From the NCBI RefSeq assembly GCF_009931435.1, contig NZ_CP043414.1: DNA of 64,000 nt. One strand, 5' to 3'. The notes under the pieces were generated by a model. The model made no database searches and was not told the DNA's origin. It saw nothing but the letters and a program-made list of their open reading frames with translations. The DNA comes from Escherichia coli (GTDB lineage Bacteria; Pseudomonadota; Gammaproteobacteria; Enterobacterales; Enterobacteriaceae). Of the stretch, positions 40,518 through 52,699 are shown piece by piece (position 1 is the first letter of the stretch; each line of letters starts with the position of its first letter). The position numbers and the translations under genes are program-made.

Positions 40518-43500
40518 AAATTCTCAGCCTGCGCCTGAAAAACCTGAACTCGTTAAAAGGCGAATGGAAGATTGATTTCACCCGCGAGCCGTTCGCCAGC
40601 AATGGGCTGTTTGCGATTACCGGCCCAACCGGCGCGGGGAAAACCACCCTGCTGGATGCCATTTGCCTGGCGCTGTATCACGAAACTCCGCGCCTTTCTA
40701 ACGTTTCACAATCGCAAAATGATCTAATGACCCGCGATACCGCCGAATGTCTGGCGGAAGTGGAGTTTGAAGTCAAAGGTGAAGCGTACCGTGCCTTCTG
40801 GAGCCAGAATCGGGCGCGTAACCAGCCAGACGGTAATTTGCAGGTGCCGCGCGTAGAGCTGGCGCGCTGTACCGATGGCAAAATTCTCGCTGACAAAGTG
40901 AAAGATAAGCTGGAACTGACGGCGACGTTAACCGGACTGGATTATGGGCGTTTCACCCGTTCGATGCTGCTTTCGCAGGGGCAATTTGCTGCCTTCCTGA
41001 ATGCCAAACCAAAAGAACGCGCGGAATTGCTCGAGGAATTAACCGGCACCGAAATCTACGGGCAAATCTCTGCGATGGTCTTTGAGCAGCACAAATCGGC
41101 CCGCACTGAGCTGGAGAAACTGCAAGCGCAGGCCAGCGGCGTTGCGTTATTAGCGCCAGAACAGCTGCAATCGCTGACAGAAAGTTTGCAGGTACTCACT
41201 GTCGAAGAGAAACAGTTACTCGCCGCGCAGCAGCAAGAACAACAATCGCTAAACTGGTTAACGCGTCTGGACGAATTGCAGCAAGAAGCCAGCCGACGTC
41301 AGCAGGCATTGCAACAGGCGTTAGCCGAAGAAGAAAAAGCGCAACCTCAACTGGCGGCGCTCAGCCTGGCACAACCGGCGCGAAATCTTCGTCCGCACTG
41401 GGAACGCATCGCAGAACACACTGCGGCACTGGCGCATACTCGCCAGCAGATTGAAGAAGTAAATACTCGCTTACAGCGCACAATGGCGCTTCGTGCGAGC
41501 ATTCGCCACCACGCGGCGAAGCAGTCTGCAGAATTACAGCAGCAGCAACAAAGCCTGAATGCCTGGTTACAGGAACACGACCGCTTCCGTCAGTGGAACA
41601 ACGAACTGGCGGGTTGGCGTGCGCAATTCTCTCAACAAACCAGCGAACGCGAGCATCTGCGGCAGTGGCAGCAACAGTTAACCCATGCAGAGCAAAAACT
41701 TAATTCACTTCCGGCGATCTCGTTGACGTTAAGCGCCGATGAAGTTGCTAGCGCCCAGGCGCAACATGCTGAGCAACGCACGCTGCGTCAGCGCCTGGTC
41801 GCGCTGCATGGACAGATTGTTCCCCAACAAAAACGCCTGGCGCAATTACAGATCGCTATCCAGAATGTCACGCAAGAACAGACGCAACGTAACGCCGCAC
41901 TTAACGAAATGCGCCAGCGTTATAAAGAAAAAACGCAACAACTTGCCGATGTGAAAACCATTTGCGAGCAGGAAGCTCGTATCAAAACGCTGGAAGTTCA
42001 ACGTGCGCAGTTACAGGCGGGTCAGCCTTGCCCACTTTGTGGTTCCACCAGCCACCCGGCGGTCGAGGCGTATCAGGCGCTGGAACCGGGCGTTAATCAG
42101 GCCCGGCTATTAACGCTGGAAAACGAAGTGAAAAAGCTCGGTGAAGAAGGTGCGCCGCTACGTGGGCAACTGGACGCCTTAACGAAGCAGCTTCAGCGTG
42201 ATGAAAACGAAGCGCAAAGCCTCCGACAAGATGAGCAAGCACTTACTCAACAATGGCAAGCTGTCACGGCCAGCCTCAATATCACCTTGCAGCCACAGGA
42301 CGATATTCAACCGTGGCTGGATGCACAAGATGAGCACGAGCGCCAGCTGCGGATACTCAGCCAACGGCATGAATTACAAGGGCAGATTGCTGCGCATAAT
42401 CAACAAATTATCCAGTATCAACAGCAAATTGAACAACGCCAGCAGCAACTCTCTGCGGCATTAGCGAGTTACGCGCTGGCATTGCCACAGGAAAATGAAG
42501 AAGAGAGCTGGTTAGCGACACGTCAGCAAGAAGCGCAGAGCTGGCAACTGCGTCAGAACGAATTAACTACGCTGCAAAACCGTATTCAGCAACTGACGCC
42601 GATTCTGGATACGTTACCGCAAGGTGATGAGTTATCGCACAGCGAAGAAACAGTGGCAATGGAAAACTGGCGGCAAATTCATGAACAATGTCTCGCGTTA
42701 CAAAGCCAGCAGCAGACGTTACAGCAACAGGATGTTCTGGCGGCGCAAAGTCTGCAAAAAGCCCAGGCGCAGTTTGACACCGCGCTACAGGCCAGTGTCT
42801 TTGACGATCAACAGGCGTTCCTTGCGGCGCTAATGGATGAACAAACACTAACCCAACTGGAACAGCTCAAGCAGAATCTGGAAAACCAGCGCCGTCAGGC
42901 GCAAACGCTGGTCACTCAGACAGCTGAAACGCTGGCACAGCATCAGCAACACCGACCTGACGGCCTGGATCTCAGTGTGACGGTGGAGCAGATTCAGCAA
43001 GAGTTAGCGCAAACTCACCAAAAGTTGCGTGAAAACACCACGAGTCAGGGCGAGATTCGTCAACAGCTGAAACAGGATGCGGAAAACCGTCAGCAACAAC
43101 AAACCTTAATGCAGCAAATTGCTCAAATGACGCAGCAGGTTGAGGACTGGGGATATCTTAATTCGCTAATAGGTTCCAAAGAGGGCGATAAATTCCGCAA
43201 GTTTGCCCAGGGGCTGACGCTGGATAATTTAGTCCATCTCGCTAATCAGCAACTTACCCGGTTACACGGGCGCTATCTGTTACAGCGCAAAGCCAGCGAG
43301 GCGCTGGAAGTCGAGGTTGTTGATACCTGGCAGGCAGATGCGGTACGCGATACCCGTACCCTTTCCGGTGGCGAGAGTTTCCTCGTCAGTCTGGCGCTGG
43401 CGCTGGCGCTTTCGGATCTGGTCAGCCATAAAACGCGTATTGACTCGCTGTTCCTTGATGAAGGTTTTGGCACGCTGGATAGCGAAACGCTGGATACCGC

Positions 43501-51533: not shown

Positions 51534-52058
51534 TCAACAATTGCTCGTCTGTGCCAGGGCGCTGCGAATTTCAGAAATCACCTGGCTGGGTTCGTTTGTT
51601 GCGTCGATGATAATATGCGCAACTTCGCGATATAGCGCATCGCGTTCTTCCAGCACTTCCTGAACTTCTTCGCTCAGCGGTTTCCCCGTTAAGGTTGGCC
51701 GTAAATCTTCTTCCGGTGCAGCTTGCAGTCGGTTAACCAGGACTGATACTGGCGCACACAAATAAACCACGATCCCGTTATTTTGCATAAAGTGACGATT
51801 AAATTCCGTCAGGATAATGCCGCCGCCCGTGGCGATAACGGTGGATGGCGCAGTTACCGCTTCCAACGCCGCCGTTTCTCTGGCGCGGAATCCCGCCCAC
51901 TCTTCCCTTTCGACGATCTCCGCGACCGTCATATTGAGCTGTGATTGCAACCACTGGTCGGTATCGACAAATCGACGGTTAAGCGAATCGGCAAGGGCCA
52001 TTCCGACCGTTGTTTTACCACAGCCCCGAGGCCCGATCAGAAAAAGAGGTTGTGTCAT
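51534..52058 (-). CDS. aroL: Shikimate kinase II
   Basis: Track ORF, 174 aa; Walker [10 protein letters not shown]. Confidence 0.95.
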
Positions 52059-52124
52059 CGTGGGTTTTCCCCAATAGGTCGCAATGCGGCGAAAGCCGGT
52101 GTCATGAGAATAGCGATCATACCA

Positions 52125-52137
52125 TCAAACTAGTACA
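52125..52137 (-). promoter_or_regulatory. Possible TrpR operator half-site upstream of aroL
   Basis: AACTAGTAC core read in the sequence; aroL is a known TrpR/TyrR target (established knowledge). Confidence 0.3.
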
Positions 52138-52222
52138 ATTTCGATTGTAAAGAAAAAATTCCACTTAAAGTGAAAATTTTAATACATCCCTTACTATACC
52201 AATAAATTTTCAAGAATGAAGT

Positions 52223-52240
52223 GTAAATAATAAATTACAT
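52223..52240 (-). promoter_or_regulatory. TyrR box upstream of aroL
   Basis: TGTAAATAATAAATTACA fits the TGTAAA-N6-TTTACA consensus. Confidence 0.6.
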
Positions 52241-52699
52241 TCAGCCACGACTACGTTGCACTTCCAGCCACCACTTCTCCAGCTCCGCGGCAAAGGCCTG
52301 GCGGTCACGTTGTGAAAGGCTATCTGGTCCCCCGGTCTGGATCCCACTGGCGCGTAAGGTATCCATAAAATCGCGCATCGTCAGGCGCTCACGAATGGTC
52401 GCTGGTGTGTAACGTTCGCCGCGTGGATTAAGCGCCGCAGCGCCTTTCTCGATGACTTCAGCAGCCAAAGGAATATCTGCGGTGATCACCAAATCGCCAG
52501 CTTCACACTGCCGGACAATTTCGTTATCGGCAACGTCGAAACCTGCCGCGACGCGCAGCGTTCGAATAAATCGCGAAGGCGGTACGCGTAAACTCTGGTT
52601 TGCTACCAGTACCAGCGGCATCTGCATACGTTCAGCCGCGCGATACAAAATCTCTTTAATTACATTGGGACACGCGTCGGCATCCACCCAAATTGTCAT
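52241..52699 (-). CDS. yaiI: UPF0178 protein YaiI
   Basis: Start moved to [13 protein letters not shown], giving 152 aa. Confidence 0.88.

Follow-up and report, generated by a model that had tools for sequence, protein, structure and literature searches.

Described systems related to aroL

The operator region of aroL (aroL-yaiA-aroM) in Escherichia coli K-12 is curated in RegulonDB/EcoCyc and has been studied by the groups of Pittard and Somerville. Primary footprinting of aroL is reportedly due to DeFeyter et al. in 1986, Heatwole & Somerville in 1992, and Lawley & Pittard in 1994. Box numbering, looping, and an involvement of IHF at aroL are given here after secondary sources and general background. 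A TyrR box contains a G and a C located 14 bp apart, and these bases are essential. Both TyrR and TrpR are stated to repress aroL (PMC5343134, PMC3473263), as the original prediction for the region analyzed here had assumed. In the literature, tyrosine-driven hexamer formation of TyrR represses aroLM, and aroF and aroLM are named together for this type of repression.

The aroF-tyrA control region is similar to that of aroL in having an adjacent pair of TyrR boxes and a third, distal one, which mediate tyrosine-dependent repression by the hexamer. However, the aroF boxes presumably are located upstream of or over the -35 region, whereas aroLp has two boxes downstream of the start, and aroF, unlike aroL, has no TrpR site. 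TyrR boxes and a TrpR operator are both present at mtr, as they are at aroL, and the mtr operator TTGTACTCGTGTACTGGTACAGTG has the right half TGGTA in common with that of aroL. The regulatory roles differ, since TyrR activates mtr and TrpR is its dominant repressor, whereas at aroL TyrR represses and dominates and TrpR was found to be without significant effect (2025 CRISPRi study). The trpEDCBA operator shares the core GTACTAGT with aroL. It is a near-perfect palindrome scoring 20-21, whereas the aroL operator has one good half only and scores 16.3. The trp operator overlaps the -10 region, and the same would apply to the aroL operator if the second promoter P2 discussed below is real.

The aroL locus

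We analyzed a stretch of 64,000 nucleotides of E. coli DNA (the window, 64 kb). The region between yaiI and aroL almost certainly represents the classical TyrR/TrpR control region of the aroL-yaiA-aroM operon of E. coli. This finding is correct but already known, because the aroL control region is textbook material that was mapped in the 1980s and 1990s. Its use is only that of a positive control showing that operators can be recognized from the raw sequence.

The regulated gene, aroL, encodes shikimate kinase II (174 aa) and is located at 51534..52058 on the minus strand. Its identity is given by the open reading frame, the RefSeq annotation, Pfam PF01202, and homologues named shikimate kinase AroL. 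The segment 51200-52800 is annotated as yaiA, aroL, and yaiI in 5,425 out of 5,426 complete E. coli genomes in RefSeq; the window shares 99.8% identity with E. coli chromosomes, and the K-12 map agrees that the gene is aroL. In alignment A1, 20 out of 22 sequences have the aroL Shine-Dalgarno sequence GGGGAA (52067..52072, minus strand) unchanged; 4 of its 6 bases are invariant there, and the other two each differ in one sequence. The upstream gene yaiI ends with the stop codon TGA at 52241..52243 (minus strand), leaving a spacer of 182 bp with a GC content of 34%. No intrinsic terminator was detected in the gap between the two genes (52059-52243), and the strong TyrR box described below starts only 2 nt past the yaiI stop codon. 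Read-through from yaiI into aroL is thus possible.

TyrR and TrpR sites around the canonical promoter

The canonical promoter aroLp (P1) carries the extended -10 element TTGgTATAGT at 52193..52202 on the minus strand and initiates at 52185 (G), which results in a leader of 127 nt. This start is common to three independent transcription start site maps. At position -127 (window 52185) it was supported by 136 reads (Kim et al. 2012), it was labelled "Known sigma 70 aroLp" with the -10 hexamer GGTATAGT (Mendoza-Vargas 2009, PMC2760140), and it was found by Cappable-seq at position 405502 (Ettwiller 2016). The SMRT-Cappable-seq supplements contain no mention of aroL.

The mapped start, and hence the promoter of an aromatic amino acid gene, is bracketed by TyrR boxes, all given here on the minus strand. 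The strong box TGTAATTTATTATTTACA at 52222..52239 (-54..-37 relative to P1) has the sequence TGTAAATAATAAATTACA with a single mismatch to the consensus TGTAAA-N6-TTTACA. We take it to be the box 3 of the aroL literature. Its fit to the consensus and its position next to the yaiI stop had been predicted correctly, while the predicted coordinates (52223-52240) were one base off. The weaker box-like sequences suspected at about 52145-52190 resolved into two sites. TyrR box 1, TGGAATTTTTTCTTTACA, at 52146..52163 (+23..+40) has the sequence TGTAAAGAAAAAATTCCA with 2 mismatches, and the weak, degenerate box 2, TGTATTAAAATTTTCACT, at 52169..52186 (-1..+17) has the sequence AGTGAAAATTTTAATACA with 4 mismatches. 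Box 2 still keeps the G-N14-C pattern, which at positions 2 and 17 is retained in all three boxes. The centers of boxes 1 and 2 are separated by 23 bp in the window; between the centers of the two good boxes this distance is 76 bp, and the promoter core is located in between.

The TrpR operator AATTGTACTAGTTTGATGGTATGA maps to 52117..52140 on the minus strand, corresponding to +46..+69 when counted from P1 and to -31..-8 when counted from the second start. Its core, ACTAGTAC at 52129-52136, is the only occurrence of GTACTAGT in the window and conforms to the CTAG-centered core GNACTAGT. The original prediction had placed it at about 52128, so that only a small correction was required. From the 18-bp palindrome GTACTAGTTAACTAGTAC, 13 out of 18 positions match, with one perfect half-site and a degenerate partner, and the predicted term "half-site" is therefore a fair description. 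In the right half, CTAG is replaced by ATGG, or by ATGA in some Citrobacter. The 18-mer covers +50..+67 of aroLp and -27..-10 of the second start, the latter being the classical position of an operator. A weak antisense start (4 reads, K-12 405540, minus strand; Kim 2012) corresponds to 52147 on the plus strand of the window, where it coincides with the G of TyrR box 1; the -10 sequence of this antisense start, TACAAT, overlaps the TrpR core.

All of these sites are located in the yaiI-aroL spacer and in this sense upstream of aroL, as had been claimed. With respect to the start at 52185, however, only the strong box is upstream, and the other two boxes as well as the TrpR site are situated in the 127-nt leader.

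A published scan with RegulonDB matrices reported exactly the same four sites for aroL, and the documented boxes hence do not map elsewhere. These were the TyrR sites AGTGGAATTTTTTCTTTACA (box 1, score 11.83), GGTGTATTGAGATTTTCACT (the K-12 version of box 2, 10.19), and AATGTAATTTATTATTTACA (the strong box, 11.26), and the TrpR site TCATACCATCAAACTAGTACAATT (16.32) (Mendoza-Vargas 2009, PMC2760140, supplementary file 6), although this agreement is partly circular as a test because the matrices presumably were trained on these very sites. In the same scan the aroL TrpR site scored 16.3 compared to 19-21 for the mtr and trp operators. A text search of the literature with the box sequences gave no relevant match.

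Since the spacer is AT-rich, the box-like sequences might be chance matches. Some support for this reading comes from the window as a whole: the 26 matches to the TyrR consensus with at most 3 mismatches in the 64 kb are at chance level (27.5 expected), and a match with at most 1 mismatch occurred in 16% of the shuffled windows. This does not hold for the spacer itself. In dinucleotide shuffles of the 182 bp, one match with at most 1 mismatch had P = 0.002 and two matches with at most 2 mismatches had P = 0.00065. Moreover, the sites coincide with those curated for aroL, and their arms are 90-99% conserved amid drifting surroundings. This conservation pattern, described in the following section, already refutes a chance origin, for which we see virtually no room. 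Elsewhere in the window, a single further match with at most 2 mismatches is present, AGTAAATACTCGCTTACA at 41458-41475, inside an ORF of 1047 aa. As a TyrR box it was rejected because of this location and because 2.7 such matches are expected by chance in a window.

Conservation of the control region

The spacer was aligned for 25 sequences from 5-6 genera, comprising 7 Escherichia, 15 Citrobacter, Intestinirhabdus, Kosakonia, and the locus L044, whose AroL shares 72% identity. Conservation was calculated as identity to the base in the window. The arms of box 3 reached 0.99 compared to 0.82 for its internal spacer, with columns at least 96% identical in the left and at least 92% in the right arm, and the arms of box 1 reached 0.90-0.91 compared to 0.74 for its spacer. 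Arms that are steadier than the box spacers would be expected for a protein footprint, and the pattern in the alignment is footprint-like. Identity was 0.97 for the TrpR core GTACTAGT and 0.90 for TTGnTATAGT of P1, which is invariant except for n in 24 of the 25 sequences. Unassigned segments of the spacer gave a background identity of 0.41-0.63. With 0.50-0.69, box 2 was not above this background. We recall box 2 as being dispensable, which agrees with its lack of conservation. In Escherichia, Citrobacter, L044, and Intestinirhabdus, the distance from the ATG varies by no more than 3 nt for both good boxes and for the TrpR core. The conservation across the 25 sequences settles the observation of the boxes.

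The longest conserved block is GTACTAGTTTGATGGTATGAT, whose 3' part is TGnTAT(G/C)AT. Between genera the control region upstream of aroL has been rebuilt, as seen in Enterobacter, Kosakonia, and Winslowiella. Enterobacter has a shorter, different arrangement without the TrpR core and without P2, which matches the literature, where only a few close relatives are said to control aroL by TrpR. In Kosakonia the -10 element of P1 is absent, and box 1, the TrpR core, and TGATATCAT are kept. In Winslowiella, only one TyrR box is present; it is near-perfect, and GGTATGAT follows 25 nt further on.

The window is not from K-12. At the same locus, K-12 MG1655 differs from it at 4 positions of the 182-bp spacer and, as a fifth difference, at the stop codon of yaiI. 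No change affects boxes 1 and 3, the TrpR site, or either -10 element. Box 2 accounts for two of the changes (TGTATTAAAATTTTCACT in the window, TGTATTGAGATTTTCACT in K-12); of the other two in the spacer, one immediately precedes the P1 start and one is located in the spacer of P1. All of the differences are outside the conserved elements.

A model of aroL repression

In the classical arrangement, the three TyrR boxes are distributed around and over the sigma-70 promoter aroLp. The strong box and the good box 1 probably are the sites to which TyrR dimers bind, as suggested by the established work of Pittard and colleagues on the TyrR regulon. By analogy with the same work, tyrosine and ATP would convert TyrR to a hexamer that holds all three boxes and thereby fills the weak box over the start. 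The hexamer would loop out about 76 bp containing the promoter core, and RNA polymerase would be kept off or trapped. Tryptophan-bound TrpR, at its operator with one perfect half-site, would be expected to add a small extra repression. The looping model is said to go back to Lawley & Pittard in 1994, and the geometry of the good boxes around the promoter core fits it.

Some observations are at odds with this model. For a repressor that is to block initiation at P1, a site at +50..+67 would be unusual. Furthermore, box 2 is not conserved in the alignment, and the IHF consensus WATCAANNNNTTR had no match with at most 1 mismatch in the yaiI-aroL spacer.

A candidate second promoter in the leader

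The position of the TrpR operator draws attention to a candidate second promoter, P2, at 52108..52144 on the minus strand. It consists of a -35-like sequence TCGAAA (52139-52144), a spacer of 17 nt, and the extended -10 element TGgTATGAT (52116-52124), in which TGn precedes a TATAAT-like hexamer and a 5'-triphosphate start follows 5-9 nt downstream. The start sites range from 52111 to 52108, which is 50-53 nt before the aroL ATG. We know of no functional study of the second aroL start. In the published maps, a "New" start at -53 was reported with the same hexamers as P2 (Mendoza-Vargas 2009, PMC2760140), and Cappable-seq found a start at 405579, corresponding to -50, with an RRS of 7.35 and a log2 enrichment of 3.9 (Ettwiller 2016).

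The TrpR site fills the P2 spacer and -10 element, and on the basis of this overlap P2 may be the real target of TrpR. In this alternative to the classical scheme, the operator serves the conserved extended -10 promoter P2 instead of aroLp, and TrpR blocks the P2 spacer and -10; we consider this possible, with a chance somewhat short of even. It is to a similar degree conceivable, though not favored, that the reported requirement for TyrR in the tryptophan effect arises because P2 becomes visible only with P1 shut, in which case no contact between TrpR and TyrR would be needed.

Several lines of evidence point in this direction. With 97%, TGnTAT(G/C)AT equals the TrpR core in conservation (0.97), and it varies only at n and at the fourth base of the hexamer, the least important positions of an extended -10 element. 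It is kept in C. sedlakii despite a degenerate TrpR core and in Kosakonia despite the absent P1 -10, and the order of a box followed by GGTATGAT about 25 nt later recurs in Winslowiella. A consensus scan of 51900-52400, a segment that includes the yaiI-aroL spacer, picked P2 as the sole promoter (9/12 + TG). Both published starts add to this, the one at -53 through the shared hexamers and the 5'-triphosphate end at -50 through a read score that was higher than that of P1 in M9 glucose. The geometry between box and promoter is identical for P1 and P2, since box 1 is located at -54..-37 of the second start, exactly as box 3 is relative to P1. Lawley & Pittard reportedly found in 1994 that inserting 4 bp between TyrR box 1 and the TrpR operator raised repression by tyrosine and abolished the tryptophan effect, and destruction of P2 would have the same outcome.

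Other data argue against a role of P2. Kim 2012 shows the start at -127 only, the evidence from 2009 is a single read, and the two P2 starts differ by 3 nt, one of them being a C. The -35 of P2 is not conserved in Citrobacter, trpR CRISPRi had no significant effect on aroL, and the right half of the TrpR operator could simply account for part of the conserved block. An origin of the P1 and P2 modules by tandem duplication was rejected, as there was no similarity outside the boxes (P = 0.64).

We tentatively propose, and with considerable doubt, that aroL may be organized in two promoter modules that are arranged in tandem at a distance of 76 bp and each carry a TyrR box at -54..-37, and that the TrpR operator serves P2, conserved in at least 5 genera. 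If true, the "TyrR-TrpR synergism" at aroL would be a promoter hierarchy and not a contact between repressors. It would also account for the location of a TrpR site some 58 bp past the aroL start and for its action only in the presence of TyrR. The practical relevance would be modest and would concern engineering of the aromatic amino acid pathway and biosensors based on the aroL promoter. P2 may even be the ancestral aroL promoter, given that Winslowiella has a similar module of box and TATGAT and that Kosakonia lacks P1.

Upstream open reading frame and leader RNA

The P1 leader contains a candidate upstream ORF of 21 codons at 52055..52120 (minus strand), a weak candidate whose stop overlaps the aroL ATG (ATGA). 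The ATG inside TATGAT might thus start a translated leader peptide of 20-22 codons to which translation of aroL is coupled on P1 transcripts. From -62 (or -65), the frame continues uninterrupted to the stop over the aroL ATG in 26 of the 27 sequences having the ATG, namely in the window, in 23 of the 24 other Escherichia and Citrobacter sequences, and in the loci L044 and L047, and some gene callers fuse it to aroL, resulting in products of 194-195 aa. However, random frames of 20 codons are likewise open in about 38% of cases, and P2 transcripts lack the frame. It has no Shine-Dalgarno sequence, Kosakonia has ATC in place of the start ATG, the peptide drifts in sequence without constraint and is poorly conserved, the stop at ATGA is forced by the second codon of aroL itself, and the ORF is unannotated in K-12 RefSeq. 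For these latter reasons it was ranked low, and we regard a functional leader peptide as quite improbable.

The leader RNA gave no indication of a conserved fold (z = -1.4, no meaningful covariation), and an Rfam search returned only a sub-threshold match to ssnA with E = 0.89, which represents noise. A small hairpin, TCGC-6 nt-GCGA, is located at 52077-52090 on the minus strand just before the aroL Shine-Dalgarno sequence. Its closing pair is U-A in Escherichia and C-G in Citrobacter, a change that probably reflects a single compensatory event.
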